Part shown: positions 23,390 to 61,078 of the stretch, piece by piece
Numbering within the stretch: the first letter of the stretch is position 1
How the letters are laid out: each line of letters starts with the position of its first letter
Origin: Trichoplax sp. H2
Lineage: Eukaryota
Reading direction: 5' to 3'
Assembly (NCBI GenBank): GCA_003344405.1
Contig: NOWV01000014.1
Location: 868,001 to 932,000 of the forward strand
DNA: 64,000 bases
The notes under the pieces: model-generated
What the model was told of the DNA's origin: nothing
The model's database searches: none
The model's input: the letters and a program-made list of their open reading frames with translations, nothing else
Program-made: the position numbers and the translations under genes

Positions 23390-23420
<31 letters not shown>

Positions 23421-23421: not shown

Positions 23422-23528
23422 AGTACTTAATCATCAGTACCAAAGTGGTAAAAATACCTTTTTTTGAACGTTTTTGAACATTTCTTACGCCTTTAGTCAA
23501 TAATAAATTGACATTAGGCACCACCCTA

Positions 23529-23929
23529 AAATACTCCCTAAGGGCGGAGCTAGCCTACACCTGTATACTAAAGAGATATTTGACAAATCAGTTGCATAGT
23601 AACCCTACTCTACGTGTACAATAGACTGTCAAAAATCTAAGTTTAAAAAATAAGTAAATGCCAATAGCTTCACGGTTTAATCACTTTAATGTACATGAGT
23701 GACAGTCTCCTAATATAGTTTATTAAGAAATTCTATCTACTAAAAGTCTACTATCGTCGTTTCAAATACTGATATAACGCTGCCATTAAAAATAACAAAA
23801 GATGGCGTTGGATCAATAATTTCAAACGGTGATAGGCCACTTTTAGCAAATAGAATTGCTTATATATTTACATCAGGAGCATGCCACTAAAGCACACTAA
23901 AACGTAAAGCTGCTGGGAAATTATTAATT
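23529..23929 (+). repeat. Copy 1 of a ~400-bp direct duplication (truncated by the assembly gap)
   Basis: aaatactccctaagg...gggaaattattaatt matches 24078-24478 with about 13 substitutions counted by eye. Confidence 0.95.
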
Positions 23930-23949
23930 NNNNNNNNNNNNNNNNNNNN
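23930..23949. other. Assembly gap (20 N)
   Basis: Run of n characters. Confidence 1.
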
Positions 23950-27023: not shown

Positions 27024-27324
27024 CTATACATTTTCTTCTACATCATCGGAATCAAGCATAGGATCATAATCGTCGCCTTCCACCATATCATCTAAATCTA
27101 TACTTCCGCTATCTTCACTGTCACTCGCGTTATCAGTACTTAATTGTTCAGCAACCCTCGAAATTGAAATAATAATAATCGTAATTGTCATTCCTAATAA
27201 GGAGACACTTTAGCACATTTCTGCAGTCCATTTTGCCCAAAATAGGATTTGAAAAGTGAAACCTGTTTTTAATCAGGGGGGGACGCTTACCCAAATGGAG
27301 GCGATAGCGCAGTACTTTACGGTA
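27024..27324 (-). mobile_element. Possible relic of a Tc1/mariner-pogo-like DNA transposon (one terminus plus an acidic C-terminal coding remnant)
   Basis: The minus strand begins TACCGTAAAGTACTGCG...TAAGCGTCCCCCCC, resembling TA|CCGTA pogo-type ends. A 55-aa frame ending ...DSEDSGSIDLDDMVEGDDYDPMLDSDDVEENV* follows. No partner TIR was found. Confidence 0.3.
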
Positions 27325-28912: not shown

Positions 28913-29451
28913 TTATAGATCGTTATCTTGTACGTCAAAGTCTTGATTTTCGTACCTTTCATCATAATTAGGATTTCCGAATGATTGTGACTCCATCGAT
29001 TTCAATTTAAATGCAAATTTTCCTACAAGTAATTATCAGAACAGACCATAAACGATGAAATTAGCCGTAAAATCAACATATGCGGTGGTTACATTCAATT
29101 TTTACAAACACTTTTCGATTTAAGTTATTTCTTCTACGGTATATTATGACTTACCGGTCGAACTACCAGCCTTGCCGAATGACAAACTTTTACGCTGAAA
29201 TGTTCTATTTTACACAAAATATTTAGTTTTAACAATAAGTCATTTGACCAACTGGTGATATTAAGTCTCAATCACTCATTAGGTAGATACATTACCCGAG
29301 CAACCTCTTAAACTACGCAAAATTTTTTGCTTTATTTCTGTAATATTCAGTTACAATATTGATTACCCTTTTCGTTTCAGGAATACAAAGGCCGCTATAA
29401 GGATCAAGATACCGATAACGCACCCTATCGCAATTCCGACGTAACTTCCGA
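28913..29451 (-). CDS. Gene B transmembrane and cytoplasmic exons (29451-29367, 29204-29155, 29022-28913)
   Basis: Spliced translation [81 protein letters not shown]: hydrophobic helix, basic stop-transfer residues, phase-compatible splice sites. Confidence 0.8.
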
Positions 29452-32400
29452 CTTATAATGCAAAAAAATTATTTTATTATGATATCACTCCTTAGATAAT
29501 CTGGTATTTGGTTAAGGCAAAGTTTGCTCACCAATTCTGATATAATAGTATCTCTTTATAGAGAATAAACTTTGCAACTCTTACTACTCTTGTACTGTAG
29601 GTCGAAATATTTACTGAAACAAACTTAGCATAATACTGTAGTTATCGTACCATTCTGAGTGACTGCACTTTGACAGTTATCCCCACCGAATCCGCTTGAA
29701 CAGCTAAAAATAAATAGAAAGAAAGTGACGTTCACAAGATTTCAAGTCGTTATAACAGAATAATAATTAAACTTCAGAGCTGGTAGCATACGTTAGAAAA
29801 AATCCTAGCAACATCATGACCGTTTATGAAATTAAGGTTTTATAACAAGAAATCTACTATGTTGTATCTAAAATAATGTTTTAATTAAGGTTATTTCATC
29901 GTAATGCGTATTTCTAAATTATATTATGGTAATAATATTGTATAAATTTAAATATTTAATTGGATAATTAAACGAACGCTGCTACTATTCGTTATAAAGG
30001 ATATTTGTATTACCTGCAGCTTGGTTTGTTGTTATTCATGCTGCACTGACCATTATTGCTGCAGTATTGTTGCGAGCAAACAAAACCTGAATATTGCATC
30101 ATGAAGATCAAAAATGTTAAGGGTGCCAGTTAATAAACCTATCGCAAAAGTAATAAAATCTTCTTTGAGGACATTAATATACTGAAAATCTCAATAGCAT
30201 ACTTATATTGGATAGCGATGTTTGCAAAACTTGATTGTTGATAGGATTGCGCACAAGACATGAATAAGCACCGTTATCAGTTATAGATAATGGACTAAAG
30301 GTGAGGTATGATGTAATTTTGGATTTCAAATTGCTAATGACATCAGCAACATTCGTCGTGTTTCCAGGTATAAGGGTGACATTATTTTTCATCCAAGTTA
30401 TAGAGGGTAGGGGGCGTCCAGCAGCTTGACATTGTAATCTCGCATAGGAACCGACTTGAAAGGTAGTAGTATTCGCGGATATGGATACAATTGCGACTGG
30501 TATTGCTAGAAAGCAATGTGATACCATAGTATACAGAAAATTAGTAAAGAGATTCATGTATTCAATCATTACTTAGATATGCAGTTATTACGAACGTGCT
30601 AGTTGAGTTTCGCAGTTTTTTCCAGCATATAGAGGATCGCAACTAAAATATAAGATTGACGGTTTATGTTAATGACATGGTAGAATTTTCTAATCGTAAT
30701 TAAAATCTGAGTGAATTTAATGATTTAATGGTTATTAGACACGACTTTGCTGCAATATTTTTATCGTTAGCTACTCTGAATAGTAAAGAAAATTTTACTA
30801 TAAAATTGAATATACTCCTAGGTCAGGTACTATAGCCTTTAGATTAGTTCTGGACAAAGCTGTCAACGAAAGCACTTTAATTGAGTAGATTTTAAATAAA
30901 TGCTATAGCTTCACTTAATAGTACCTGCATATGGCTCCAGAACTTGTTTGATTGCATTCGCCTTGGGAATTACAGAATACAGATGAACACGTAAACTCTG
31001 CAAGTAAATAATCATTAATATTTGTCTAGAATAAGCCATTGTTAACAAAATAAATTATAACATACGCATAAATACAAGAGACTTTCCATTTACTCAGCGT
31101 TCTCAAACCTTGTACAACATTTTATGCGTGAAAAACAAAGCAAATTTCATTTTACTTACGTAAGCTTACGGTAGTGCTGTTTATAGTTTTCTTGTTAATC
31201 TCATCCTTTGCTTGACAGTAATAAGCGCCTGCGTCACTTGGAATGAGGTTCGCAATTGCCAATATTATAGTAGTAGTGTCATTGGAATTGTCAGCTGCAA
31301 GGAAGACATTAATTCGACCTCCGGATATTACTTGTTTGCCGTTATGGTACCAATTGATCGTAGGTCTTGGTCTCGCTTTCGATTGGCATTGCAGACCAGC
31401 AGAAGATCCAATCAGGTACTGAGATGCATTTATTTTTGCTGCTACCAAACTGAGAGGGAGATCTATAGCAGATGTAAGTATTTGTTACATTTTTTGCATC
31501 TATAGCATTTTCATTTATTTTTCAAATTTCGAAAACATCGATTCCTAGTTTCTTATGGAAATGAAAGTGCAACACCATAACAGTAACTCTGAAGGAAATT
31601 GAATCTAAACTTAAAAAATGCCTACTTGGTAGCACAGTCTCACAGCGATTTCCCACGATTCCGAAATTGCAACTACAATCGGAGCAGAATCAAATATAAA
31701 ATTGTTAAATGCCAACTTGAAATTACTACGTTTATCTAACTTGTATTAGTCATATTATACATTGTTTCAGTAACACCAATGTCGTATACGTTGCAGCTGT
31801 TTGTATCATAGTGTAGAGTAAAAATCAGAATTGTGAAATACACAATAACAGAATTGATACTGGTAGGCTCTATATTAACTATAAATATAATTTTACGAAG
31901 TTATAAAGATTCTGTACATGAAGCCTAGATTTACTTTAGACTTTGTAATGATTTATATTGTACTATTGTACAATTTAATGGCTGCATCTGCATGAAGAGA
32001 AAGTCTCGATTTTAGGTTTACCATAGTATTATGCTATGATTGTGACAGGTACTGATCGTGACGACCGTGAAGAAATTTACCTGCATTGGAGAGTATTAGT
32101 ATTGGCAATAGTACTACAAATCCCATTATTATTGCAAAATCCTGTTGAACACACCATTCCTATTTAAAATAAGATTGAATAAATATACCAAGTAATAAGT
32201 GTTTGCATCAGCTCATGTGCGTATTGTGCATTTACAAATTAAATTTCTGATTCAACTTACTAATAGTCATCGTTAAACTTTGAATTGTTGCTCCGTTATA
32301 ATTACCAACGCACTTATAGCCCCCAGTATTATCCAGCATTAAGCTACTAATGACCAGAATAGATTGAGCAAGTGTAGAATTCGATAGCGATGTCGAATAG

Positions 32401-35400
32401 GTAATTACGACATTGCCACCGCTACTAATTGGCGCACCATTTTTAGTCCATGTAAGGGCTGACGTAGGTCGTGATACTGCACTGCATTTTAACGCAACAT
32501 ACACGCCTTGAACGTACGTCGAGGTATTGCTTTGGATATTCACGGTACTCAATGGAATATCTTTTTTTCAAAAATTAGGACAGGATAGTGCAAATTTATG
32601 TTAGATAATTTAATTTATTTATACATAGCGTAAGATACATTATGCATCTATGAAGAAATTAAACTATCATTGCAGAATTTATTCAATAAGTTTAATAATT
32701 TATTTTTTCTTACCGTTTAAACTAGAATTCTACGAACTATAATTAAAATAATGTTCTATCATGCAGAGAAATAAACAACTTACCTGATAGCTTCGTCTCA
32801 CAGTTAGATCCAGTATAGTGCAAATTGCAGCTACATTATATTGGTTGGAAAGTAAAAAAATGAATCAATTGCAATAATTAAACGATTCTGCCAAGAACTT
32901 CATCACTAAAGAAATGCTAGTGACATATTCAGCATATCCTAACTTAGCCTTAGTGGAAAATACTGTTGCGACTTAATCTTAGAAGAAAATGATAAGGCTC
33001 GTGACAAAGGAAGTTTAGTCAGAAGTGAAACACGGCGATAAAATAAGCAATAGTATTTCTAGCTCTTATCTATTTTCATTGTGGACTCAACATCCAAACG
33101 AATAATTTAAGGAGTTTAACAATAAAAATTTTAGAACATTATACCAAGATTATCTGATTTTGTATTTGAGAAATTTTACCTGCACTGAATTAAATCACTA
33201 CCAGTGACACTACTGCATATCCCATGACCTTTACAGAATCCAGTCGAGCATACCATCCCTATCAGAATTGGGATTAATAATAATTGAAATTTGAAATATT
33301 TGTATCAACTGCTCTGACAGGACAACGAACAAAAAGAATGAAAATTTTTCGCTAATTATTAAACAAATAACTAATTTAAGAGACAGGGCATCCTTAATTA
33401 ATGATTCACCAATCATGGTGTATGAGAGCTAGACTATTTTTGTCTGCTATACCTCCAAAGTAGAATAATAACTTACTTATGGCGATGACAGAACTCTGTT
33501 TAGTTATGGAGCCGTCGCCATAATTTCCTACACACTTATAATCTCCGTTGTTCGCTAGGGCCAAACTCTTGAAAATTAAGATAGACTGTACGAGAGTAGG
33601 GTTGCTAGGTAGGTTAGAATTAGTAATAATAACATTGCCACCATTCGTTATTTGAGCACCATTCTTAGTCCATGTCAGTACTGTGGAAGGGCGAGAAGTT
33701 GCTTGGCATGTCAAGCCAACCATTGCACCATAAATATAAGTTGTCGTATTGCTTTGGGCTGTGACACTATTTAGAGGGATGTCTGAAGTGAAGTAAAACA
33801 AACGTAAGTTTACCCATCGCACCTACACAGTCAAATTATCGCTGTTTTAAGCATTACGGTTGTAACAATTTGATCTTTAGTAACTCTCGATCATAACATC
33901 ATATTTCCAAATTTACTTAGAAAATAATATAGAGATCTATTAAATTAGCTTCGTAGGTAGCAATACTTACCAGGTAGCCTAGTTTCGCACTGAAGCCCCG
34001 TATAGTATAAGTTGCAACTATTTATAAGAAATATTAAAATAAGTTATTATAATAGCTGATTGTCTATCAACAACGTTAGAAAATGACTCACTCAATTCTT
34101 TAAGTGTCTGTAAAGAACAAACGCTGAATTTATTCGGCATAAACATTAACCGGTTTACCTGCATAGGAGTGTATTGTTTCCATTATTTGCAGGACTACAT
34201 ATTCCGTTATTATTACAGTATCCTGGAGAACAAGTCATTTCTATTTGATGCATCCATAACATTTGAAGTAGAATATTTGAGGAAAAGTGTAATGCAAATC
34301 CATGTACAGGTATAATTATAAGTTAATGAAGCTCAATGTTAGCAAGATTAATGATGCATTATTAAAAATTCTTAACAGTATAGAATATATAAATACATGA
34401 GCTGCACATTATGTAAGTATTTATTTATAACAGCATTAAAATTAATGGAAGCAACTTACTTATAGTAAATGGAAGGCTCTGCACTATTACGCCATTTTGA
34501 GTGCGGTTACTAATGCACTTATAATCTCCGTTATTATTGAGTGTTAACCCATTTATGATAAGATTTGATTCCGCTAATGTAAAATTTGAAAATGGAATGG
34601 AATAAGTGATCATAATGTTTCCTCCGGCTGTGATTGGTACATCATTTTTAGACCACGAAAGTCCCGATATAGGACGTGATTTCACTGCGCAAGACAAGAT
34701 GATGTGCGATCCAAAAACGTAGGAAGAAGTGTTGCTGATAACAATCACATCGTTTATTGGGATGTCTAGAATGTTTTAAAAGCAGTATTTATCATGGTTA
34801 ACTAGACTTCGTATACCATAATCACAGCTAACAAGATAGACCTGTTTCTGGATTGGATAACGACTTTTATAATTTAAGCTTAATTCTACAGGCGACTATG
34901 ACACAAGTGCATAGGTAACATACCGGTAAGCTTGGTTTCGCAATTAGCTCCTGTAAAGTATCGATCGCAACTATTAAACAGAAATAGAAGAAAGTATGTT
35001 TAGTACGGTTTTTATTGCTTAGTGAATTAATATTTCCAATTAGTGTCAATGTTGTTTAAAAATTGTGTAACCATTCATGCGTTCAGTATTGTTGGTACCA
35101 GGGTGCACGTGAAATACAGATTAATCCTACTCTATCATGTTATTTCGAAATAAGGAAACTTTCGTATTTACCTGCATTGCAGTAAATCACCATTATTTAC
35201 GTTACTACATACACCATTGCCACTACAAAATTCCGCTGAGCATACCATTTCTATAAAGAGTATTATTACCGCAATAGTATTAGAAAATTTTCGTAAAACC
35301 ACGTGTAAGATCAAAAAATATTAAGCTTATACGCGTATACAGTAACTTAACGATTAGCTATCCCTTACTAGAATTCACTACGCTGAGATTAAATACGGTA

Positions 35401-38400
35401 TACTGGTTTACAATCAAATAAAATTTCTTAATATTTTATTAAGATTACATTTATAAGAGGACTACTAGAACTTACTAATAGGTATTGCTGAACTCTGAAT
35501 GATCGCACCATCATGGCTATAATTACCATTACATTTATAAGCTCCGTTGTTATTAAGGGTCAGAGAATTTATAGTGAGCATCGATTCTGCTATTGAGGTA
35601 TTCAATGATGACATTAAATTTGCAATCATGACATTGCCTCCACCAACAATTGGAAAGCCATTTCTAGTCCATGTAATTGCAGATCTTGGACGAGACACTG
35701 CTAGACATGTCAAGGTAACATTTGCACCGTAAATATAAGTAGCAGCATTACTTGCGAGATTGACGGTAGTTAAGGGGACATCTTCAAAATTAAAATAATA
35801 CAATAGTCGTATTTAATATTCGATAAATAGAAAACGTTCAAGTCCATAAATGCGTAGCTAGATATACATAATTAATGAAATATAGAATAATCTAGAATTA
35901 TCTTGATTTGAATCAGTTTTAAATTAAATATAATCAAGTCAGTAAAGATAATAACATATATAAAGTATTAAATACATACAATACACGTTTTCGCAGCGAA
36001 GACCAGTGTAATCCTGATTACACCTGTTTGTAGCAAAATAATATGATTAAGAAACGAGCGGTAACAAATGTCGGTCTGCAGGTGCAGCTAATTTAATTTA
36101 CGCTAGAATGATTTGAGATGGTTTTAGAGGGCATAGTTTCTATATAGCAATAAAGGTATATTCGGTAATCGAAAACTTATAATATAAGGAATCATACGGC
36201 ATGTTATTTGTGCAAATTATACATATGCGTAAGAATTTATTCAAGAGCTTTAGTAAGCTATACATGCATATCATACCTACAAGATGGAATACCATTAACG
36301 GAATTGCATTGACCGTTACCGTTGCACAAATAAGGTGAACATGTTACGTCTGCAACATTAACAAACAAATAGTATTGGACAGTATAAAAGCATTTCATAA
36401 TGAAGATATACTAGATGCTATCATTTAATAGACAGCGTTGCTTAACGTACTGAGAAAAAAAGAATCTGTGAAAGAAATAACTTTAAAATGATGCACATGA
36501 TCATAGTTAGTGTAAGATAAGATGACTCATAATAGAAATAAAACATACTTTATTAAGGATATTCGAAAGGTATAGCAAAATTATTTCTAATTTTAAAGGT
36601 GATATTTTGCAGAATAGAGTAGATTTTATGACTGCAATACGGTGGTTTTGCTAAAGCTGTAATAAATAGTGACGATTGCTTGATGAGTAATAGAAACTCG
36701 TCATTAGTTGTCAATATCCTTCAGAGTTACATTATCTATAGCAAAAATAAGGTTGCATTGTCTAGGTTTTACGCTGCATATTTTGGTGTAATGATTAAAA
36801 GTCATCATTTTCTGAAGCTAAAGTGACGTGGAAAAATCAGCAGATGTGAAGATGTGCTGATATCAAGTTGATTTGCATTGAATCGAACAAAATTTATGAA
36901 GCTTTTTAGTTGTAATAGTTTCAACTTTCGATACATTGCTAGTAATACCTATGAGCGTTAAATACATTTAGCAAAGTAATGAGATTTAATTACTAATGCA
37001 ACATACTTATCAAGACAGGATTGCTAGTCACTGATGTGCCTGTAACTAACTGCTTGGCTGTGCAGCTATAAGTGCCAATATCGTTGAAGGACCGCATCAT
37101 AAATGACAAAAATGATATCGATTGATAATAACTACTGCCTACAATTTGGGAGATGTTATATTTGTTTCCAGATTTTAGTTGAACGTTGCCTTTATACCAA
37201 GATATGTCCGACAATGGATATGAAAGAGCTTCGCAAGTCAGACCAACATTTTGAGATAAATTGTATGATACAACATTTGATTTTAAGGTGACTATTCTCA
37301 GAGGTACACCTATTGTAACATCATAAGACGTCATTTTAATACGATTATCACAAGTACTAGAATCGTATTTAAGTAGTCACCATGACACAAAATGTAGAAT
37401 TATTCTGGCGTTGTAAATAAGTAAGCTATGTCTGTTAGCTTATTAGCACCACTATCAGTTACATCATGAATAAGCTTTACAAATACGTACTTGTTCTTTC
37501 CCTTTCGCAGTATGTTCCAGTATAACCATCATTACAACTGCTATTGATATCAGTGAACAGTGAAATTTAGCAATTGAAATTATATTAATACTCGGTAACT
37601 GTTCATAGAAATAACTTAAACGCTACGCCAATTAAGGGTACCTGCATGACGGCCTACCGTTCGCAATTGTGCATTGACCATGATTACTGCAAAATTGTGG
37701 TGAACAAGTGAATTCTGAAAAATATTAAATACGTAAGGCTGACTAAGAATAACAGTAATGAAGACAAATTATGACATATACCGAAGCAATAGGTTGAAAA
37801 GGACTTCAAATTTTAATTTTTAAATATTACGAGTATTTAAATAAAGATACAATAACTTATTCGTAGTAACAAGACTTTATACAGTAATAGCGATTGAAGA
37901 ACAATTTCACTTTTTCTCAATTTAAGCAAATTAGAAAGTCCTTTGAAGTTACCTATATTTATGACGTTACTACGTATAATTCTACCGTTCGAATCCATAG
38001 CATTGCATTCATATTTTCCATTATCTTCTCGCATTACGTCATTAAAGTTTAGTATCGATTTGGCAATATATCCAGACATGCTACTGGTTGCAAATCCAAT
38101 ATTAGCAGCAGCGATAACCTGAACATTGTTCTTGGTCCATGATATCGTTGCTAATGGATTAGAATATGCCATACATTGCAGAGATAATTTTTGGCCAACA
38201 AAGAAATTCGTGGCGTTTACTTGTAACGTAACCTGAGTTAAGATTATTTCTACAAAGGGATAAAAATCCGGTATAAGATAAGGCCATCGCTGAAGTGATA
38301 AACATGCTTAACGATTGGCGTGTTTTCTTTACCCAAACGTCAAGATTTAATTTTAAATTCCTAATAGATAAATAACTTCTGTACCCAGTATGTAAGTTAA

Positions 38401-41400
38401 TTTTACCTTCTGAACATGTACTTCCATTCCAGTACCCTGCATCACAGAGGCAAGTAAAAGTTTTAGCCGGTTTCAGCACATCGATGCATGTTGCATTGGA
38501 ATTTCCACAAGGAGAACTAAGACAAGCGCTAATCTCTATTAACGCAAAAAGAATGATCAGTGCTTTCTACATAGCGAAATAGAACATAATTCTTAGTTGA
38601 TAAGCGAAAATGTAACGAATTTCCTTCAGCGTTTTATTATCAGTTAGCAATCCATGGCTTATCATACATATTGCATTAATTCACTGGTCTTTATAATATG
38701 ATGATTTATGCATATAGTCTTAGCAATAAAAAATCAGATCGTTTTTCGAAATCAATGTGCAATTGTATCTTTTTGAAGCAAACTAGATAACTACGGTGTA
38801 ATCGATTTTGCTTTAGCTTTAAAAATTGACTATTCTCGTATTAATAAACAACAGTTATAGTTTCATAGTTCAAGATTTGCCACTGAAATCGATCTAAATT
38901 TTTCACGTAGTGAAAAATCTAAAAATTTTAAAATCATTTACTAATAAATAATTACTAGTAGGTGACAAAGAACGCTTAAAGATTACAACGTGAAGACGTA
39001 GCTAAGCTGGAAAATCAGATGCACGAATGCATAACTACGGAGCGATAGTCTGAGTGGCACAGCAATATGTAATTCATCTTGCATAGTAATTTTAGCGATT
39101 TATGTGGAAGAGTATAATGCTATCTAAATAGCTTAACCCTCACCTGATTGACAAACGTAACTTGGTTGTTCGAAAATCACGAAAGCATTAAAAGAATTGT
39201 TAGTAAATCTCTTAGTTTATTTCAACGTGTATTTATATTCACAAAACCTGGAGTATAATTATTAATTTAATTGCCAGCGAACACACACCTAATAATAATA
39301 TATACTTAATAGCAATAAGAACTTACTTGGGAGGTAACTGGATAACGCCAGTAATACTTGTATCTAAAGGTAGATCTATAAATATCCAAGGAAAACGATA
39401 CTAATTACTGAAAAGCTAGATTTCATGTTAGCCTACGTTTTTATTATTTTATTTCCTATTTCAAACTTACCTGCACAGAATGCTTGAGCACTCATATTAG
39501 CAGAACATTGAGATAATTCACTTGCACCATTACTCTGGCTACAATTAGCTAGATTAGGTTCATTGCCTAAGCAATCAATCCGACCAATCAAAGTTTCTAA
39601 ACGGCTAGAACCACAACATTGACTGCGCAACTGTGTTTCAGTAAATCCTAGCTGTCTACAAGCTACTTGAGCATCCTGGAATTGCCAATGGTTGGCACAT
39701 ACCTTCCCCCACTTCTTACCATCATACACTTCGACTTGGCCTTGATTATACATTATGGATCCGGTCAAACGAATGCCAATTACATTCGAGTCTAAAAGCG
39801 ATTTGCAAGTAATATACAGATCTATTAGATATAAAAGTCCCTTAAATAAGTTATGGACTTCTACTTACAAAATAGACAGTTGTATCCACTGTAGCCATTT
39901 GGACATTCACACGAATAATAACCAACGAAATCTTTGCATACTGCTCTACCGCCGGCCATTAATGTGCAAGGGTTACTAGCGCATTCATTAATATCTACCG
40001 ATTTAAATTCAAGTATACATGAATATCAGAGGATCTATTGCCTTATGATCTTTCAATAAAATACTGACTTAATTAAATAGAAAATTTATGCCAGCGGGGA
40101 TAGATTAGGTAATAGTAAAACTTCTGTAACTTATCGATTTCAAGAATGTAATTTTGCAATTAGTCGTGTTATTTCTAGGGAGGTACTTTTTATAGCCTTG
40201 TACCTGTTTCGCAGTTAACTCCTGTATATCCAGTATTGCATTGACAAATATAGTTGTCGCTTTGACCCACTGGCGTACATACACCATGATAATTGCAGGT
40301 TTGTGGATTGGTATCGCAGTAATGATCTAACAGCAGTAAGATCGAAATTCTTGAGCTTTAGTCAAATGTAAAGCGATTTAAAGTAGTCTAAGAAATCTTA
40401 GTTCATTGACTGGTATCGGAATAATCATAACTATTCAGCAGCACCATAACTCAATTAAACTAATAGATGATAAATTATATATCATCATTCATTTTCCTAA
40501 CTTTTTGTAACAATTAACAAATCAAATATCAGCAATTATTGCTAATGCTAATAAGGTTAATGTTTACCAGATTTATGATTAGAATTAAGAAATAAATAGT
40601 TATCGGAAAAATAACTAACTGTTGCATTCGATGGTCACATCCATGTCGTGTGTACAATTAGAATTAGCCGGTACATTCCGGAAGCAATTGAGAGGTGTAG
40701 TTTCGTCGCCATTACATTGCAAATTATCGAATAAGATTTTCCCTTTGCCACTTCCGTACATCGATGAAGAATAAATAGTTGTTACATTGCCATAACCAGC
40801 CGCTCTGCATAGCACCACTGCAGCGGTAAAATCTATGCCAGTGTTACATATAGTTCCCCAATAACCATTCTGGTAGACTTCTACAAAGCCAGTACCATTA
40901 ATGTTGCTATTGCCACTTATTCGGACTGCCCCATTCGGAATAACTCCGAATTGACATCTATCACCGTAATATCCAGTCGGACATTGGCAATAATAAGACT
41001 CTCCATTTAGCAAAGTATGGCATGTTGCGTTATTGGAACACACGCCTGCATCACACCAATTGCCTTGACATTCAACACTAACAACCTCATAATTAAGGCA
41101 ATTGGAACTTCCCCATTCTTTATGTAGGCACTCGGATAAAGCCGACTCATTGCCAAAGCAGACTACATCATCTAGCCAATAATTATTCATTTTGCTACCG
41201 TACTTGGAACAACAAGCCCAACTTCGAGCACTTACAAACCCAAGTTGTTTGCAAGTAACATTGGCTGCTTTGATGTCAAATTTATCATCGCAAACTGGAC
41301 CCCAAGTATTATTGAATTGTACTTCAACATTACCAGTGTAAGGATTTGGTCCTCCGATTAGCCTTATAGGAACCACCTGTGCTACTGAAGAGTTAATTGA

Positions 41401-47400: not shown

Positions 47401-50400
47401 GCAGTAGTTCCTATATGCCAAACAAACTAAACTTATCTTGTGTACTGCTAAAGCGAATACGTATTCATAAAGGACGTGCGTATTCTTTATTAAATGAAGT
47501 AGCCTTTAAGTAACTTCCGATGAACTAATTACGATTATTAATTCTAGAATTTCCAATCTGTACCTGAACAAGCTAAACTTAGATCTCGTTCATGAGTGCA
47601 TCCACCCTGATTAGTTGTAGTTTTGTATGTACAATCCTTGATTGAATTTTCATTGCCAACACAATTCAGTTGATATAAATCGGCACTACTATTGGACATA
47701 CCAAATACTGACGTCGGGAATGAATTTGCAAATAAGTAACCCATCTGTCTGCAAATAACTCGCATGTCGACTAATGAAGTGGTATTTATGCAAACTGTAG
47801 CCCAGCTATTATTAAGAAAAACTTCAACGCGTCCACTCATTGGTGATGTGCCATTGACTAATCGAACTGATCCCAGCGTTGGAACTACAAAATGAAAGCC
47901 GAAATAGATGCATAGAGGGATACCCATTAGATTGAGATAGCAAGTTATAATAATTCGATAAAGCTTAATAATTTAAACAACAGAAAAAACTTACAATTTG
48001 CCTTTTGACAGTTTTGTCCAGTAAATTGACCACTACAGGTGCAATAATATCCGTAAAATCTATTAAAGCATGTGCCACCGTTGAGGCATGGATTAGATGA
48101 ACATGGATTCTTGGCTGTAAATTTGATATGAGGGAAGTAATACATTATCTAACGCAGATTTAATTGATTTTGTTACAACTCAAAGATGGATTCGATATTA
48201 CTTACTTGAACAGTAAACACCAGCATAGCTTGAAAAACATAGGGTATTTTTGGAAGGATCACTACCTAGACAATCATAGATGGAGAACTCATGACCTGTA
48301 CATTTCATGTTTCTCATTCCATTCGATGTTGGCGGTAAGCCAAAAGCAGTATCTTTGGTGGTGCTTAGTGCTCCTGCAAAACCAAACTGTTGACACACTA
48401 CATGAGCGTCAAATATAGTAAAATCACTGGCGCAAATTGGTTTCCATACGCCATTATACAAAAATTGTGGTCGTCCAACATTAATTTCATTTGGTTTGCC
48501 ATCGATGATTACTAATGAGCCATTAGCAAATGGTCCTGAAACAATAAATGAACTATCGTGAACTAAAATATCATTGTATACCTATAATTATGCTTTAACA
48601 TTTTACGTATTTTATGACTGCTACTATAAAACGATTAATTGAATAAAGAAGTGTATTTCATACCAAGTTGACATCTTTTTCCTAAATATGAACTGTTGCA
48701 CTTGCATGAAAAGGAGGTTTGACCAACTAGAGAGCATTCTTCATTATTTTCGCAAGAGTTAGGGTTACAGAAGTTTCTGTACTGACAGAGGTCGCCGTAA
48801 AAACCCATCGGGCAGAAACATTGAGTAATCGTTATGCTAACTCCGGAAACCATGGTATGCTTAGGACCACAAGTTCCGTTGTTTAAACATGGATTTTGTT
48901 GACAGCTTACGTCTGCAAGATTTTATTATCTCCTTAGAACTCTCAAGAATTTTATTGAGGTATGACAATTTGCAAGCAGATAAAACATTATTAAGAACAC
49001 ATTGAAGGCAAAGAATCCTAGACCTTTACCGTAATAGCTCATTAAACATAATTCTAAAGAAACTTTTGCTGTACTTACTAACGCACTCCACCCTGTATCT
49101 ATTATAGCAGCTGTAAGTACCCGTTCCATAAACATAGGAGCAATCCGCAATTGAAGTTTCGTTACCATTGCAAGTCATAGTATTAATCCAAATTTTTCTA
49201 GATGCTGAAGAACTATCGCAGCAGTAGAATTTCATAGAACCCGTTGCATAGCCAAATTGCTTACATGCAATTACTGCTATAGCTTCGCTGTTACTAGTTG
49301 AACAAATTGATCCCCAAATACCATTATGAAATATTTCTATAGCACCTTTAGCGATATTAACTTGGGATGGATCAGATACTTTATAATAATCGTAAATTCG
49401 GACTGTGCCTTCTTTAGGTAGAGTAGCTATAGCTATTATTAGAATAAAGTGACCATAATTAGTAGAAATGCATCAAGCCAATCTTAAGAAATAAATTTTG
49501 TGTTACTGCATTTATCGAGGCAGAAATGAATAAGGAAGAATCGAATGGCAAGCACATAGATTCAAGTAAACAAGAAAGATTAAAGTATACGTATGATGTA
49601 AATCTTGATATTTCACCGAAACAAAATTTAATTTAAAGTAATTTCTACTGAATGCGTCTTAAAACTAAAAGTTGAAGGCGTTATGATTTATTTATAACTA
49701 GTCTTTTTCAGCAAACTTTATTTATCTTCTGTTAATTCTTATAGCCTTTCACAAACTTTGGAAATTACCATCGTTCGCCGTATATATCGCACTACAGACC
49801 ATATCAATGTACTATAAGACCTAACGTTTTCACTTTATGAGCTTTCGGTTGAGATACAGTATAGACTATTCCAGAAAGTCATCAGTTACGGTATGCAATA
49901 TAAAACTTAATTCTACGTCAACTGTAGATATTCAATGCAGATGTCAAGGTATTTGGGACATTCAAATACCTCACTATAATTTAATTATTCTCATTCGATG
50001 GTTTGATCCAAAATGGGATTGACAAGAAAGAACGGATACGAATTTAAATAATAAATATCGCTAGTTTGCAACTGGCAGAACAATTTTTACAAAAAAAACT
50101 GTAGGTCTGCAAGATATACTGAAACGTTATTATGAGATATAGAAGTAGAACAGAATAAGAAATACGAATCAGCCATGCTGCACAGTATGATTTCTTATGA
50201 CAATCTATAATACGAATAGTTACCGATAGGAGTTTCGCAATTTTCGCCAGTATAGCCAGTTTGGCAAACGCATACCGTTGAGAAGTATCCATTTGATCTA
50301 CAGATTTTATTTTGAGCTCTACAAGCTGCAACTTTGTCTGCATTGCAGTTATCTGAAACTAAGTTTGATTGGATGTCAAAAAAAATAAGTCAAGGAATTA

Positions 50401-53400
50401 GAATATTGACTACTAATTAAAAACGACCATTTCGTTTTGACTACATGTGAAAGCACTACAACTCTAATTCAAAAGACACGGATTAATAATCTAGTACGAT
50501 ACGCCAAAAGAGGTATTCTTTCGATTAACTAACTTTTTACTGACTTTCAATAAGTAAATTAAAACAAGTATCGGTATTTGTCATCATCGGTGCCTGATAA
50601 ATCGCTATGACAGGCTTTGATATGGAAAATTCGTTATTATTGCGTAGCTGAAGCCTAAATAGAATCTCTTACGGAAAGCTTACCTCTACACCTAACAGAA
50701 ACAGCATCTCTACTACCAGGAACACAGGAGGAAGAAACGACTCCAAAGCCTTCATTATTGCATAGTAGAATGGACAACTCATCACCAATGCATCGCATTT
50801 TACCTAAATTATAGTTTGTGCCTGTATTGAAGTTTCTGAAACTCGAAGCACCCGAAAATCCCAACTGGTTGCATACAACATCAGCTTCATTCGATCTGAA
50901 CGAGGAAAATGAGGAGCCACAGATTTCCCCCCAAGTACCATTAAAGTAAACTTGAACCAGACCTTCATTGTCCGATACTTTATTTGTTAAACGTAAGTCT
51001 CCATCCTGTTGAGGTCCTAAAAATTCATTGATAATGTCGGCTCAAATTAATTTGTAATACTTTGTACGTTTAGTACAGTAATGGGTAATCCTGCCATAAG
51101 GATAGCAGAAACATTTTCCATGTGGAGGGCATAAGCGTTATCAAAAACAGTTACAACACACTAAAATTGTGTTGATATCGATATTAAACCACTGCAAGCC
51201 AGAAATGTGAAATAATTCCAACTTACTTATTTGACAGCGATTGCCTTGATACGGATACGCACACTGACACGTAAAATTAATTCCATTAGGTTGGCATATC
51301 CCTCCATTCATACATGGACTGTTACCGCAAGGTAAATCTATTTAGTCATTTGAATGAAAATGCCATTAAGGTTAGTTTCAAGAACTTTTATAAGCATGCT
51401 TGAAATTCCACTTTTAGCAGTCATAGAAATGAATAATAACTGGATAAGAGAAGGCTATGGATACATTATGATAACATAAAAAGAGTGCAAGCCTATCTAA
51501 TAATATTGCATGGATGTTGCAAGTATTTCAGGTCATTGAAAAGCAGTACATATTTCGAGTAGTGCTTACATGTCGTGCAGTTTTGATCAGTGTAGTTATT
51601 ATCGCAGGTGCAAGAATAGCTTAAACCATCAGGGCTACTGTTACAGGTACCATTATTCATGCAAGGATTGTCCGAGCAGGTAACCTCTAAAGTGAAACAT
51701 GTTTACACGTTAGTAAAACAAATTTTACAGTACCATCAATGGATCATTATCGAAGGGCTACAAAGTGCCACTAAACAAGTTTCATTTGCAATGACTTTAA
51801 AATATCTCGATTACCTGATTGACAAATACTGCCAGTATAAGGATACATGCAATTACAAGAATAAGATGTTCCTGCATATTTGTTGATACATACGCCGCCA
51901 TTTGTGCAAGGATTGGAAGAACATGCAATGACTAATTATAATTACGCAATAATACGCAAGTTAGGAGATGCATGTAAATTTCGTTAAAGATATTAACTAA
52001 GTGGCTAAAAACTATTCTTTATTTTTATAAAATAATACGGTAATTAATTGTCTATCATTAGAACCTACAACGGTATAAACTGCTGAAAGAGTTAACGCTG
52101 CTCAATGCCCAGTAATAGGGAACACACAACAACATTGAAACTTACCGACTTCACATCTTGCACCAATGTAAGGATATGGACAGGTGCAATTGTAAGAATT
52201 ACCATTGTATAAACTTGAGCATGTTCCACCATTTAGACAGGGATTGGGGTTTGAACATGGATCACTCTCTATAGAACAGAAAAGATGATAATTTAGATAA
52301 TATAACCTTCAAAAAATTCAAAAGTTGAAATCCTTTCCGAGCACCTAGCGATATGTACTAAATCGCTCCGTATAGCTATTAAAGCTACCAGAAGCAGCGA
52401 AGGTACTACAGTGCCAACTACGCTTACTAGATAAAACGCTACTTGAGAACAGAAATTGTATTCAAAAATCAAAGGTAAACGGTAGAGTTGTTCTACCGCA
52501 ACCAAAAATGGACTAAATGCTGTCGATCCAGTCAAATTCGTTAATACGACTGCTAGAATACAGCCCAAATCACAGTTGATAATTAAAATGAAGTCTTTAT
52601 ACATCTTTGAGTTATTTTACAGTGTTTACGAGTTAAAAGATGGTCAATTTCTCAGGACTTTAGTGATTATAATATACAGCTAACGACGATGATAATAAAT
52701 AAAATGGCATACTTGTTTGATTGCAGGTTCTACCAGACATTCCTGACGGACAGGAACAAGTATAGGTGGAATAGGAGTAGTAGTTAAAGCAGGTACCGCT
52801 TGCACATACGTTGCTACTACATGTTCCTTGACACGTTTGGCCTATTAAAGGAATTTAGTTATTATAACGTTCGAAACATCTTTTACAGTAGCGATCAATT
52901 TTGATTGGAGAATAAATAGCATCTTTGCTTACTTGGTATATTGGCAGTAGCATTATAACATTCTTGATTGACAACACCAATGGGGCAGTAGCACAAATAG
53001 CTTGCCACTCCGGATACTGTAATAGGAACACAGTTACCAACTTGGCAAGGATTACTGCTACAAGGGCTGGTTGTACCGTTGTTGTCTAAATAGAGAAGTT
53101 GATGTTATATGTTTTCGAAAATGGTTTGCAAACTTTAAAACAATAAGTTCAGCACTGTTTACTTGTTCATACTTTCGTGTGGTGCACAGAAACGCATGCA
53201 GTGATATATAACTCGAAGCAAGACTCAGTCATCTGATAAACTTTTATCTACATGTAGAATCTTTCATGATGTTAGACTGCTGTGAAAAAGAGAAATTGGC
53301 AGCATGTCTAGGTTAATGATGTTTAGTAAAGTATACCCTGCATTCTATTGGAACAGCTCAGCGAATAGTATCTCTGTGCAAGTGAATTACAAATTACTTA

Positions 53401-56400
53401 AAAATCTAAACTATTGGGAGGAAATTATCATGGTATATAAGATTTTAACTGGGTAAGCCAGAAGCAAATATAAGCCTCCTCATACTATAGAATATCTCTA
53501 AGATCTTAAGATGAATAACTAATCTGCATAGAAAAAATGAACTAAATTCTAGCTGTCACGTATTATAATGAATATTAAGATATACTTGATAATCATTGCG
53601 GTGAATTGCGTGATTCCTTAGTAACATCGAGTACACTAAACTAGCCAGATTTTCAGCTCGTTTTAAATTGTCCAGTAAGCTTACAAATCTTTATTGTACT
53701 TAACGCAATTATGCTCGCAATGCTAAGGAAAGAACTACCAGAGCAAATAGTGTAAGCTATCGAAGGGCAAATACTCGTTGAGGTTTGATTTCTTTAATGA
53801 ATGAATAAATTAAATTTAAACGACCATATTGATTGAAATAATTCAAGTAACTGCATCAACTTTAGTATTCAATTTAAGGAAGTAAAGTTACCTATTTGAC
53901 AGTTATCGCCGGAAAAGCCTTGATAGCAGATACATACAGATTCTCCTCGTACTAGGGTACATCTTCCTTGATAGCAGGCGATACCGCTACAATTTTGCAT
54001 AGGACTTACTATAGTAACAAAATATGAATAGATAATGTTATACATAAATTTAGATGAGTCTACGGTAGAATATGTGGTACAGTACCATTAATCCATTTTT
54101 AAATAAATCAATAGATCTATCATTGATAATAATTTCTTTATTCGCATGCGATTAAAAATGATACCAACTTTGTTACTACACTAGGCATGCAGACTATCAA
54201 CAATAAAATGTTGATATCATTACGTCTTCATTACATAACACTTTAGCTCCCCGTCTGTTCGTTATGATTTTAAATGTTGTCATTGGTAAAACATAATTGC
54301 TAAGTCTTGATTAACATGCTTATTCTAACCATTCACTAGACAAATATGTTATCATGCCAATTATATGTCTCTAATATTCAAAGTACGCTACTGATATCGT
54401 TACTTATTGATTCATGATTACTTTTTAATATCTACATCCACAGATGTATATCTAAATTAGATTTAGTATTATAGACTCTAATGGTTTATGATAAGATATC
54501 ACATTGGGTACGTTATGGCTTTCGATTTAAAGGAGTCAAATGTGCATCGTTTTTACAATAATAAACACTTATATGCATATATCTTATACTATATTTTGCA
54601 ATTACGCTTGCGATAAAGTGTCATCAAAATAAAAAAATACGTACTACAGTTTCTTGTTAACTTTTACTTTAATACATAATTTAGGTTCGTCTTGCAACTA
54701 TCAATATCTAAGAGCTGGTATGTTCAGTGTGATCTCACAGTTTGCTCTAATTCATTCTTATTAAGCGTTTTGCTATAAGGTCTTTCTCGAATCCGTATAG
54801 GATAGAACTCTCCTAAAGCTGTTGCCTATATAAGAACGCTTATGTCCACATCAACTATTAACGGTAGTGTATGCATCTAAATACGGCATATCTACTCTTA
54901 GTAAAAGTTAATTTCAACTAGACTGTAGCATAACTCTTTATTAATGTAATCTATATTTAACAAATTGACACTATGGAAGTTTAATTATACTTTAGTTTAA
55001 CTGTATCATAGAACTGCCCAATCTTCTTGCATCTATCTCGTTAGTCAATTCTGTTAGTACAAGACAAGCTTACACGCTTTACCTATTGTACTTTACTATA
55101 GCCATTCGACTAGTCATGTCGTATTCATGCTATAACCTCACGCGGTTATCCTTTTCACACCAGCCCAATAAAGACTATTATTTCGCCAGTCATTCTGTTG
55201 TAATTTATTGCAAATATAACAGACCTATTTTCAAAACATCACACCGCCTTATAGTAATCATTCTCTAACCCTTTCATCGGATGCTTAAGTAATAAAATAT
55301 TTCCTTCCCTAATCACAGACTGCCGTTACGTTAGGATTTACTACTAGAATTATACCGCCTTCTAACTGATTAGCCGTGATCAATTATTTCCATTTTGATA
55401 ATTTAGAACAGTGACTCCTATAGAATTACTAAAGACTATCCCTGAATATCCATTATGCAATAGTGACCCATGGTAACAATGTAGTTAATGTAGTACCTAG
55501 CTTTCTTTTGCAAGATCTAAAATATGCGGTATAATTTTCTAGATTACTTGCGTAAAAATCTTGATTTAAGATGCAGAAAGGAGTGCATGACACTACACCA
55601 TAATTAAACGATTAAACTTAGAATACAAGTATGTTGCTGTTTTATATAGGCTAGATAAAATTTGGGCATCAAATTTCCTGATTTGACAGCTTGTGATAGA
55701 ATGATCAAGATTATCGACTTGCAATTTGTTACTGCAACGATAGAATCACGTGATAGAGCAGAAAGATTACTGTGTGACCTTAGTTCATATTGATAACAAT
55801 TGGAGACTGTTACGAAGAGTTAAAGGGGTGCGAAGCATTTTAATGACTTATGAGTATGAAATATATTGATAACGAAGCTATCCCATCTAATATTAAATCA
55901 TTATATAAGAGGCTACAGAGTTAGATGATCCTGTGTTGAAATGTAGATGGTTGAAATCGTGAAAATACAAAATATTATCGTTATATGGTCGATATTGATA
56001 TTCAAGGTCGTCATGAACGAAATCTATAATCGATATGAAGTTAAAATTGACCTCCAAATATTTTTGCTGGCGGTCAATTGAGTCAGCATAAATAAATTTA
56101 CGTAAATATATGTGACAATATGCACACAACAAATAATACTTTGCTTTTGGAAGTAGAGAAAGCTGTATGATATCACCTCTATCGCTACGAAACTTACTTT
56201 TGGATATGGCGCCATCCGTTTTATTTGCTGCACAGCTGATAGCAAACGATAGCAACTGTTGAATAAACAGGTAATATAATTACTATGAGCAAAGAGTATG
56301 TTTTTCTATGAATCTTTGAAAACTACAAGAAAATAGTTTCCGGCCATCAATAGTAAATTTTATGCAACTACAATAAATTTAGGCCACCTACTTTTCTAGA

Positions 56401-57275
56401 TACCTAAAGATTGATATAACAAGTATTTTATAAGACTTCAAGCTCTATGTCCTTCAAATATCTTTAGCTATCAGACAATCGATAAGACTCTGCGAAGCCG
56501 CTAGAGTTATGTAGTAGTATCAATCATAAGAAATCGAGATATTTTTTGGAGCGTGATAGAGTACTGTGTAACTAAGAAAGAAAATAGGCTATGTAGCTAT
56601 CTACTGTTACTGGGACAAATAATAAAAAATTATCTCCACGATGTCTTTCCAACGAGCTAGAACTGCTTAAAAATAAAAATTCCTTTCTCAGCAGGAGATA
56701 TTCAATATTGTAACATACTTATTCGAAGTTATAGTTCGTTCTAATACAATCGAGATGGATGTGATCCTTCCGGAAAGAATGTCTGAACGTCAATGCGGAT
56801 AAAAACTATCTTAATTTTATAAGTTTGATTTTTAAAATTAATTGTAATCATTTCCTTCGCAAAGAATGTTTAATTATTCGAAACACAGCCGCAGGAAGTA
56901 AAAGGAGTGACCTCTAACAAATTTAGCTATCGTCTTTTCACAATACTGTAATTTACTCAACAATGTAGGTCTCTTAAGATTTTCAATTTCAATAATTGTA
57001 GTGCTGAAGTACAGATAGTCTGTTGAGAACTTAGGCAAATAAACGGAGGATATAGTATAGATTACGGTTGATTTTGAATCAAGTAACCTACTAGCTGATA
57101 AACTACAGAAATATAAGACAGCCTTGAAACTCGCAAAATCACTACATAATCGCACTACTGAGTTAAGAAAGTTATGCTAAGTAATACAGAAGGAATAAGC
57201 TTATAAAATATGAGCATATTAAAATCACCACATTTTACTTACCATAAAAAATAGAACTTTAGCTACGAGCCACAT
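28913..57275 (-). CDS. Gene B: complete multi-exon type I membrane receptor; signal peptide, 7 EGF, 13 SRCR + EGF, 8 x (Ig-EGF), TM, FxNPxY tail (~31 EGF in total)
   Basis: Manual splicing from the ATG at 57275 ([37 protein letters not shown]...) through EGF, SRCR and Ig exons to TM exon 29451-29367 and the TAA stop at 28915-28913; the junctions I checked are phase-compatible GT-AG. Confidence 0.9.
29651..38248 (-). CDS. Gene B Ig/EGF block: 8 Ig domains, each followed by a two-exon EGF
   Basis: Ig exons at ~37952-38248, 37007-37308, 35476-35781, 34459-34765, 33477-33782, 32260-32560, 31158-31463 and 30203-30505; the last EGF is 30014-30086 + 29651-29703 ([17 protein letters not shown]). Confidence 0.9.
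39471..51016 (-). CDS. Gene B SRCR/EGF block (13 SRCR domains)
   Basis: SRCR exons near 50684-51016, 49078-49426, 48204-48536, 47564-47885, 47077-47410, 46123-46452, 45010-45338, 44291-44617, 43429-43733, a split one at 42199-42425 + 41743-41851, two within 40619-41384 (canonical [16 protein letters not shown]...WGPVCDDKF...[23 protein letters not shown]), and 39471-39791. Confidence 0.92.
44848..44913. repeat. Intronic 29-bp tandem duplication (about 2.3 copies)
   Basis: cattatttcattct(a/g)ctttccgtaactga x2, then cattattt. Confidence 0.9.
51227..54008 (-). CDS. Gene B N-terminal block of 7 single-exon EGF-like domains
   Basis: Exons at ~53892-54008 ([16 protein letters not shown]...), 52933-53085, 52713-52841, 52146-52267, 51815-51931, 51570-51686 and 51227-51337. 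Confidence 0.85.
56198..57275 (-). CDS. Gene B signal-peptide exons 1 (57275-57243) and 2 (56255-56198)
   Basis: A 33-nt ATG exon ending ATG|GTAAGT (phase 0), then a 58-nt exon CAG|TTG...AAAA|GTAAGT (phase 1). Exon 2 has the same length and the same GAIS motif as gene A exon 2. Confidence 0.75.
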
Positions 57276-60950: not shown

Positions 60951-61078
60951 CTTGAATTAAAATGTTTATATAAGCGACATCATGATAACAAGTTCAAACG
61001 TGTACTATCAAAGTTGATTGCAACTCAAAATAGACCGGGAAAATCTTCAAAGTCGGAATATTTTCTCTTTAGAAGGAA

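Follow-up and report, generated by a model that had tools for sequence, protein, structure and literature searches.

A Trichoplax gene with an EGF-SRCR-Ig layout: RNA-supported model and candidate role as a scavenger-like surface receptor

Introduction

What kind of gene lies behind a dense run of open frames that bear the marks of EGF, SRCR and Ig domains in a placozoan genome, and what could its product do? The run occupies 28.9–57.3 kb on the minus strand of a 64,000-nt stretch of Trichoplax sp. H2 DNA (GenBank assembly GCA_003344405.1, contig NOWV01000014.1, positions 868,001 to 932,000); this whole stretch is called the window here, is AT-rich (G+C 29–37 %) and supplies all coordinates. 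A first-pass annotation, made from the letters alone, had proposed that the frames splice into one giant mosaic receptor, referred to below as gene A. It is almost certain that gene A is a real, expressed, single gene with an EGF-SRCR-Ig layout in a Trichoplax-lineage placozoan. Its product is very probably a surface receptor; for ligand uptake as its main role the odds, judged by analogy, are about even.

Gene model and transcripts

Scanning of the six-frame open reading frames (ORFs) of the window with SRCR, EGF and Ig hidden Markov models (HMMs) gave 89 matches on the minus strand versus none on the plus strand; the domain signal is therefore far beyond chance. The gene model was built by splice-aware dynamic programming and was then corrected by using RNA contigs, read depth per bin, splice sites and a paralog. 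In the final model the introns are GT..AG throughout, the frame is open over all 64 exons, and translation runs from an ATG at 57275 to the last stop-codon base at 28913, which are the very ends that the first-pass annotation had given to its one complete spliceable gene. The features of the gene are as follows.

28913..57275, minus strand: coding span; 64 coding exons, coding sequence (CDS) of 10,917 nt including the stop, 3,638 amino acids (aa)
57243..57275, minus strand: exon 1, coding portion; start codon (ATG) and the initial 11 residues of the hydrophobic N-terminus
56198..56255, minus strand: exon 2; remainder of the putative signal peptide (hydrophobic residues 3–21, Kyte–Doolittle mean (KD) 2.24)
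51227..54008, minus strand: exons 3–9; seven single-exon EGF-like domains, all phase 1-1
39471..51016, minus strand: SRCR/EGF array; 13 SRCR and 15 EGF domains (Pfam and gene-derived HMMs)
42424–42200 and 41850–41743, minus strand: SRCR10, split over two exons
40620..41384, minus strand: exon 31; single 765-nt exon comprising SRCR11-EGF-SRCR12
39144..39375, minus strand: linker; 49-nt exon (39375–39327) and 17-nt micro-exon (39160–39144)
38407..38535, minus strand: EGF-like domain 5′ of Ig1; Pfam EGF 23.0 bits versus a cut-off of 21.5, joints in RNA
29651..38249, minus strand: eight Ig-EGF modules; Ig exons of 297–306 nt, Pfam Ig_3/I-set/Ig_2 in 8/8
37540–37491, minus strand: EGF exon of 50 nt within the Ig-EGF block
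29367..29451, minus strand: transmembrane exon; KD 3.13 over residues 3564–3582
29204–29155 (50 nt) and 29022–28913 (including the stop), minus strand: cytoplasmic tail exons; 56 aa with FGNPNY, then YENQDF
28551..28556, minus strand: AATAAA, likely poly(A) signal, 356 nt past the stop

Contigs of four runs (X4, X7, X8 and X9) from four studies were compared with the window over 37401–57400; X9 is recorded as RNA-seq. The RNA contigs, which come under two organism labels, agree with the window at 99 % or more. Spliced contigs that join the SRCR and Ig blocks were present in three of the studies (X8, 11,261 nt; X7, 5,300 nt; X9, 4,959 nt), and all three cross SRCR11/12, SRCR13, the linker, the following EGF domain and Ig1. 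The X8 contig begins within exon 1, passes through SRCR1 (record 932–1263) and Ig1 (record 7228–7524), and continues for 3,737 nt more. Run X4 spans the introns without any joint and looks like DNA, so the joined forms are RNA and not DNA. Within the Ig-EGF block the RNA joints cover Ig1 and its EGF unit.

A total of 38 joints was obtained versus 39 modelled introns for the same stretch, because two introns merge at the micro-exon. Read on the plus strand, 14 of the 15 joints listed have CT..AC ends, which are GT..AG in the sense of the gene; the fifteenth, 38537|39320, has the ends AT..AG and 8 unplaced letters, and is the row that marks the micro-exon. The gap between SRCR13 and the next EGF domain measures 64 nt in the X7, X8 and X9 contigs, 8 of them unplaced. 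These 8 letters occur once in the intron, in a 17-nt exon that is flanked by AG and GTGAGG and that closes the frame (49+17+129 = 195 nt). The micro-exon was missed by the ab initio model and is carried by the RNA contigs of three runs.

An exact fit between contig and model coordinates was found at all three intervals checked:

135 nt, SRCR1 to SRCR2: contig coordinates equal to the model
2,592 nt, 47078 to 41384: contig coordinates equal to the model
123 nt, 40620 to 39994: contig coordinates equal to the model

X8 depth per bin agrees with the modelled exon length in nearly all bins over 37401–54075. Further 5′, a depth of ~58 nt in bin 56077–56743 corresponds to exon 2 (runs X7, X8 and X9), the depth of X7 and X9 in bin 56744–57400 fits ~160 nt of exon 1, and record 11 of X7 holds 1,132 nt upstream of 51015. 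Exon 1 extends 5′ as untranslated region (5′UTR) for at least ~174 nt, with an in-frame stop 9 codons 5′ of the ATG. At the 3′ end, the 3,365 nt of CDS past Ig1 and ~372 nt of UTR add up to the 3,737 nt of the X8 contig, and the X7 contig ends 3,732 nt beyond Ig1. The 50-nt tail exon is backed by the H2 paralog P0123, described below. One spliced mRNA of ~11.3 kb thus encodes both blocks, as the first-pass annotation had anticipated in expecting a single mRNA of ~11 kb; separate SRCR and Ig transcripts, which it had named as an outcome that would speak against it, are excluded by the RNA of three studies.

All 40 strain differences listed fall inside the modelled CDS; 26 are synonymous and 14 replace a residue, a pattern that fits a translated frame under purifying selection. 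Exon 31 (40620–41384) holds nine of the 40, and five of these nine replace a residue versus 9/31 elsewhere, the numbers being small. Three replacements in SRCR11 equal the residues of the T. adhaerens model TRIADDRAFT_21116; X7 and X8 therefore carry the TRIADDRAFT_21116 allele type and the window another.

Loose contig ends with up to 255 unplaced letters were seen in X7 and X8 at 46317, 46843, 54430, 54937 and 56860, that is, inside exon 19, bordering exon 18, or in the long introns that separate exons 1, 2 and 3. Another X8 record overlaps the 37401–57400 stretch only in part. Alternative transcripts, unrelated transcripts or assembly chimeras could account for the loose ends.

Domain architecture and membrane topology

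The spliced protein consists of a hydrophobic N-terminus, seven EGF domains, 13 SRCR domains interleaved with 15 EGF domains, a linker, one EGF domain, eight Ig-EGF modules, a transmembrane (TM) segment and a 56-aa tail. The order within the array (S, SRCR; e, EGF) is S e S ee S e S S e S ee S e S e S ee S e S e S ee S. Run on the spliced protein, HMMs derived from the domains of gene A itself gave totals of 31 EGF-like, 13 SRCR and 8 Ig domains, in agreement with the string of seven EGF, 13 EGF-interleaved SRCR and eight Ig-EGF units read off by the first-pass annotation.

Against Pfam, all 13 SRCR domains exceed the PF00530 cut-off of 26.1 bits: 11 pieces scanned singly scored 38.3–80.8 bits (for SRCR10 the scan took in the first exon part only), and the two-domain SRCR11-EGF-SRCR12 exon scored 158.1 bits. 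Each of the eight Ig exons passes the cut-off of Ig_3, I-set or Ig_2. Among the single-exon EGF pieces, 13/20 reach a Pfam cut-off and 7/20 give sub-threshold EGF-family matches (E 7.6e-6 to 0.015); for the seven N-terminal EGF domains the figures are four above the Pfam EGF cut-off and three sub-threshold. The eight membrane-proximal EGF units are of another type: each is cut by a phase-2 intron into exons of 73–82 nt and 44–53 nt, the spacing is C-x4-C-x5-C, and in P0123 a unit of this type reaches only sub-threshold EGF_2 or teneurin-type scores.

Only two segments of the protein have a KD mean above 1.6, namely residues 3–21 and 3564–3582. The protein contains 67 N-glycosylation sequons and 294 Cys residues. 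In the tail, NPNY at 3619 is preceded by F-G, and NQDF follows at 3628; a TM segment with a tail of ~55 aa and an FxNPxY motif had been noted from the first pass. No Pfam family matched the TM exon or the last tail exon, the two scanned of the three exons at this end. From these features the product is predicted to be a type I membrane glycoprotein with ~3,540 extracellular residues.

Traces of the history of the array may be read from its internal identities. SRCR1–4 are closest to SRCR5–8 (39, 35, 34 and 38 % identity, respectively), and this pairing points to an old block duplication. Ig3–6 are mutually 44–59 % identical and appear to be a younger expansion.

Paralogs and public models

The layout recurs in a second gene, downstream of gene A on the same strand:

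32..21600, minus strand: gene B, tandem paralog; 24 collinear tblastn matches of 31–58 % identity

The first EGF exons of gene B lie at 21600–21151, and the gene leaves the start of the window after its sixth Ig domain. At the ORF level its domain string is that of gene A, except that six and not seven N-terminal EGF domains were detected; the split SRCR10 and the fused SRCR11-EGF-SRCR12 exon are shared with gene A.

Public models of other paralogs are partial. RDD45647.1 (P0123; Trichoplax sp. H2, 652 aa) bears the record name "Down syndrome cell adhesion molecule" (DSCAM) and is 48 % identical to the last 650 residues of gene A, TM segment and tail included; the TM segments are 69 % identical, and the order of the tail exons and an LSFG block are common to both. 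At the position aligned with FGNPNY, P0123 reads Y-E-N-A-D-D, and its next motif is Y-E-N-P-S-F versus Y-E-N-Q-D-F in gene A. Each of these two paralogs thus has one NPx[YF] motif, at alternating tandem positions, and the YEN core is common to both.

TRIADDRAFT_21116 (P0017; T. adhaerens) is a partial, SRCR-only model and the best database match of the SRCR11-EGF-SRCR12 exon; its first 206 aa match SRCR11–12 at ~97 %, allowing for the skipped EGF domain. The model skips EGF exons and joins the SRCR11–12 counterpart (window 40621–41367) to SRCR domains that are 50–66 % identical to those of gene A; it looks like a chimeric, homology-templated model. Together, TRIADDRAFT_21116 and TRIADDRAFT_21345 hold SRCR4-, 8-, 11-, 12- and 13-type domains of further paralogs in the order of gene A.

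The placozoan paralogs are distinct genes, 31–66 % identical to gene A, and make up with it a small family in which the 52-domain order is strictly conserved. Their public models lack either the EGF exons or the SRCR part, and their names mislead. The expectation that the gene would prove lineage-specific and already be catalogued in fragments was borne out by the SRCR-only TRIADDRAFT_21116 and by the H2 paralog whose C-terminal part is named DSCAM.

SRCR domains and ligand site

The SRCR domains of gene A are mutually 21–39 % identical. Eight cysteines are found in five of the 13 (SRCR2, 6, 9, 11 and 13) and six cysteines in the other eight; 12/13 are unsplit by introns, with SRCR11 and SRCR12 sharing exon 31. 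SRCR group B (CD163, DMBT1, CD5/CD6 type) has eight cysteines per domain and one exon for each. As a mixture of 6- and 8-Cys domains, the protein as a whole fits neither SRCR group.

In the parts of the published work on DMBT1 that were consulted, SRCR ligands bind via surface cations held in DMBT1 SRCR8 by D1019, D1020, D1058, D1059, N1081 and E1086; mutation of these residues abolishes binding, and the same site occurs in MARCO, CD6 and CD163 SRCR2/3 (PMC7043408). The six columns were placed on gene A by motif, by using duck DMBT1 domains and not the human numbering. SRCR11 alone has the full set (D D D D N E), and its pattern equals that of the duck DMBT1 domains. SRCR9 reads D D I D Q D, which amounts to five acidic or amide residues; in the other eleven domains most of the six are missing. 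SRCR11, an 8-Cys domain, has CD163 SRCR2 as its best solved match (76.6 bits), the two agreeing in the site residues CDD, DD and N..E, and the SRCR11-type domains of the T. adhaerens models P0017 and P0056 share its site motifs by eye. Judging from these residues, classical binding of polyanionic or protein ligands would be possible for SRCR11 and perhaps SRCR9; the remaining domains would have to bind in another way or serve as spacers.

Comparison with known receptors

The comparison covered 272 proteins, namely the 120 best SRCR-based matches (up to 2,000 aa), the 150 best Ig-based matches (any length, drawn from 1.84 billion representatives) and two others; it was made with HMMs tuned to the domains of gene A itself and is a limited test. 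Among the 272, SRCR occurred together with Ig in one protein (an amphioxus "CD163") and together with EGF in one (a crinoid protein); repeated Ig-EGF modules, or the full layout of gene A, occurred in none (0/272). On this sample the layout matches no named family; the first pass had recognised none either. An exhaustive search with Ig5 returned no full-length counterpart, the closest sequences being short unnamed fragments (43–62 % identical) and P0123. In word-index searches, the SRCR11-EGF-SRCR12 exon retrieved two partial T. adhaerens models along with proteins resembling DMBT1 or CD163, the C-terminal part of P0123 matched only itself, and Ig8 retrieved a centipede DSCAM alone; since this last search missed P0123, with which it shares words, such absences carry little weight. 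A full-length public model of more than 2,000 aa may exist.

Several known families resemble gene A in part. CD163 and the class I scavenger receptors are alike in being type I proteins with a long SRCR array and a short endocytic tail. The ectodomain of CD163, however, is SRCR-only (nine domains), as is the rule for class I scavenger receptors, whereas gene A has 31 EGF-like and 8 Ig domains interleaved or appended, six cysteines in eight of its 13 SRCR domains and the full ligand site in one domain only.

DMBT1 (SALSA, gp340), a multi-SRCR pattern-recognition molecule, gave the top sequence matches of the SRCR part. It is secreted and has near-identical SRCR repeats, SID spacers, and CUB and ZP domains. 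Gene A differs in having SRCR domains that are 21–39 % identical and EGF-spaced, followed by a TM segment and a tail; no CUB or ZP match was found by Pfam in the 40 ectodomain exon pieces scanned.

The LDL-receptor family (LDLR, LRP1, megalin) comprises multi-ligand receptors in which the FxNPxY tail motif recruits PTB adaptors for clathrin uptake. Its members are likewise giant type I proteins with EGF domains and a short FxNPxY tail, and the tail motif is all that is held in common: neither LDL-A repeats nor a YWTD propeller was found by Pfam in the exons scanned.

CED-1, Draper and MEGF10 have an N-terminal EMI domain, an atypical EGF array and a tail with NPxY and YxxL motifs that is used in phagocytic uptake. 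They and SREC are EGF-rich type I receptors, and gene A also has an NPNY tail; this family is without the SRCR and Ig domains of gene A, in which no EMI domain was found by Pfam and no YxxL/I in the 56-aa tail.

The sponge (Geodia) aggregation receptor and the SRCR mosaics of sea urchins combine SRCR arrays with other short extracellular modules, a TM segment and a tail. They differ in that their SRCR domains are accompanied by Sushi/SCR or other modules and not by Ig-EGF units; by Pfam listing, the sponge matches have SRCR and Sushi. Cnidarian SRCR mosaics are described, in the part of the source consulted, as SRCR and Ig combined with a trypsin domain, a layout unlike that of gene A (PMC5119243).

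By sequence, the nearest relatives of the Ig domains are giant Ig-repeat proteins, DSCAM among them. DSCAM itself has ~10 Ig domains and then FN3 repeats. Identity with DSCAM was rejected, as no fn3 match was found in gene A or P0123 and EGF units stand between the Ig domains. Identity with pro-neuregulin was likewise rejected: EGF domains of the EGFR-ligand type have C-x7-C spacing, the membrane-proximal spacing in gene A is C-x4-C-x5-C, and no family, PF02158 included, matches the last tail exon.

Within the phylum, Kamm et al. report, in the sections consulted, 45 SRCR-containing transmembrane proteins with more than 20 domain types for Trichoplax sp. H2, most of the combinations being phylum-restricted (PMC6321704). 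The placozoan scavenger-receptor expansion is thus already published, as far as that source was available, and gene A is a mosaic receptor of that kind which may already figure among the domain patterns of Fig. 2 or Dataset S3A there (PMC6321704). Outside Placozoa the layout appears to be unfamiliar, and it has been seen so far only in the placozoan paralogs of gene A. A literature search turned up no paper linking Trichoplax, NPxY and a PTB domain, and the placozoan cell-type papers retrieved contained nothing on gene A.

Function

By analogy with receptors that have SRCR domains and an FxNPxY-type motif, gene A may be read as a scavenger- or uptake-like receptor that belongs to no named receptor family. 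More specifically, we propose, with a probability of roughly 0.5, that it is a lineage-specific multi-ligand surface receptor which is internalised with its cargo via the NPxY-type tail. The eight Ig-EGF modules would make up a long stalk on the cell surface and would present the 13 strongly diverged, EGF-spaced SRCR domains, and the extracellular ligands bound would differ among the domains of the array. A Ca2+-bridged acidic site of the kind that takes polyanions, microbes or proteins in DMBT1, MARCO and CD163 would be used by SRCR11 and perhaps by SRCR9. Through its NPx[YF] motif the tail would then recruit a PTB-domain adaptor and so lead to clathrin-mediated endocytosis or phagocytosis of the receptor with its cargo. 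Placozoan fiber cells, according to the portions of two papers that were consulted, phagocytose bacteria and debris (PMC12013895; PMC8639732).

Several points weigh against this proposal. Eleven of the 13 SRCR domains have the canonical acidic cluster absent or partial, and most of the array therefore cannot use the only well-established SRCR binding mechanism; for the distal microbe-binding SRCR array that the first-pass annotation had in mind, the full cation site is present in 1/13 domains. The position of the NPx[YF] motif is not conserved between gene A and P0123, the motif is short enough to occur by chance, and motifs of the NPxY type also serve adhesion receptors, as in integrin beta tails. 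As to the model itself, the signal peptide is predicted from hydrophobicity alone; the joints of exons 1–3 are outside the 15 listed of 38, the 5′ end being supported by depth and record coordinates; and exons 41–64 (Ig2 to the tail) are placed by splice logic, module regularity, the total-length check and P0123. A literature search by the identifiers of the gene and of the related public models found no paper.

A second proposal is that the protein is a receptor for cell–cell or cell–matrix adhesion or for self/non-self recognition, in which the long EGF-SRCR-Ig ectodomain would make the contacts and the tandem N-x-x-[YF] motifs would be linked to the cytoskeleton through talin/kindlin-type PTB-like domains. 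The analogues would be the sponge aggregation receptor (an SRCR array on a short-repeat stalk), the Ig-superfamily adhesion molecules and the integrin beta tails. The eight I-set-type Ig domains, nearest to giant Ig-repeat proteins that include DSCAM, and the automatic naming of the H2 paralog as DSCAM are in line with such a role, as are the two tandem motifs (NPNY at 3619 and NQDF at 3628), both positions of which exist in P0123, the many SRCR domains without a canonical ligand site, and the share of replacing strain differences in SRCR11–12 (5/9 listed versus 9/31 listed elsewhere, on small numbers). FN3, cadherin and other typical adhesion modules, however, are missing from the ectodomain exons, which consist of SRCR, EGF, Ig and a short linker; polymorphism is mostly synonymous (26/40 listed), unlike that of known allorecognition genes; and the two motifs are 9 residues apart, which is shorter than the ~12 residues of integrin beta tails. 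Adhesion or recognition as the main role is considered somewhat unlikely.

In a third proposal the protein is a membrane-tethered precursor that sheds its ectodomain. The product set free would be soluble and DMBT1-like, acting as an agglutinin or as part of the mucus, or would consist of Ig-EGF fragments that diffuse away in the manner of pro-neuregulin (Ig-EGF-TM-tail). Conservation of the TM segment and tail in two paralogs speaks against this, as it argues for a role of the tail itself. DMBT1-like proteins do head the matches of the SRCR part, and a language-model look-up placed the C-terminal part of P0123 nearest to pro-neuregulin clusters (0.86, 161 shared features), a score below the bar set by the tool's calibration and to be taken as a lead only. 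Against this stand the C-x4-C-x5-C spacing of the EGF units, which have only sub-threshold teneurin-type or EGF_2 scores and not the C-x7-C of EGFR ligands, the failure to find a Neuregulin cytoplasmic domain in the last tail exon, and the lack of CUB or ZP domains as in DMBT1. Release of the ectodomain is regarded as decidedly improbable.

In a fourth proposal ligand binding would lead to phosphorylation of the tail tyrosines (Y-E-N, pYxN-type), and the outcome would be a kinase cascade in place of uptake. The pYxN sequence is the preference of the Grb2 SH2 domain, and YEN, found once in gene A and twice in P0123 at aligned positions, is better conserved than NPxY; yet it is only three residues long, and the tail is without a kinase, death, TIR or ITAM-like YxxL/I element. 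Signalling as the main role seems very unlikely. That the model fuses neighbouring SRCR-EGF and Ig-EGF genes, or is an assembly or prediction artefact, is almost certainly wrong, for although the T. adhaerens public models are partial and chimeric here (P0017) and exons 41–64 depend on model, length check and paralog, spliced contigs of three studies cross SRCR13, linker, EGF and Ig1 and run on for 3.4–3.7 kb, the frame is open through 64 exons, gene B repeats the domain order, and upstream lies a divergently oriented plus-strand ORF of the DRMBL family.

Within the uptake proposal, a more specific and unlikely version is that gene A and its paralogs are the placozoan counterpart of the cubilin–megalin pair, that is, nutritional multi-ligand uptake receptors in a gutless animal. 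If so, the site of action would be the absorptive ventral epithelium or the phagocytic fiber cells, with uptake driven by the NPx[YF] tail; each of the 13 long-diverged SRCR domains would have its own class of target, either food digested outside the body or microbial material; and function would depend on the 52-domain order, which has come through an old duplication unchanged.

Surroundings of the gene

A 442-codon ORF at 61073–62401 on the plus strand contains a DRMBL domain (DNA-repair metallo-beta-lactamase, SNM1/Artemis-type; 36.2 bits); as it lies upstream, gene A extends no further 5′. The intergenic stretch between the first EGF exons of gene B and the 3′ end of gene A holds the following:

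23286–23554: TA-rich microsatellite
23930–23949: run of 20 N (assembly gap)
27024–27209, minus strand: short, highly acidic open frame rich in D, E and S, without a Pfam match

The last of these could belong, as an exon, to a small gene that lies between gene A and gene B.

Significance

Gene A now has a complete, RNA-supported model, and the public models related to it are shown to be fragments (the SRCR-only partial model) or misnamed ("DSCAM"). The locus illustrates in detail how mosaic receptors of early-branching animals can escape homology-templated models, the 17-nt micro-exon having been revealed by RNA alone. Two experimental handles are offered by SRCR11, the sole SRCR domain with a full Ca2+/ligand site, and by the NPx[YF] tail.

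Placozoans digest their food externally and then take it up, and intracellular bacteria are present in them; to our knowledge they have no Toll-like receptors. For these reasons it is an open question which of their surface receptors capture food, microbes and debris, and gene A bears on it as one of the largest candidate capture receptors. If the nutritional version of the uptake proposal is true, gene A and its paralogs would show that bulk ligand capture evolved independently here, from SRCR, EGF and Ig domains in place of CUB and LDL-A.

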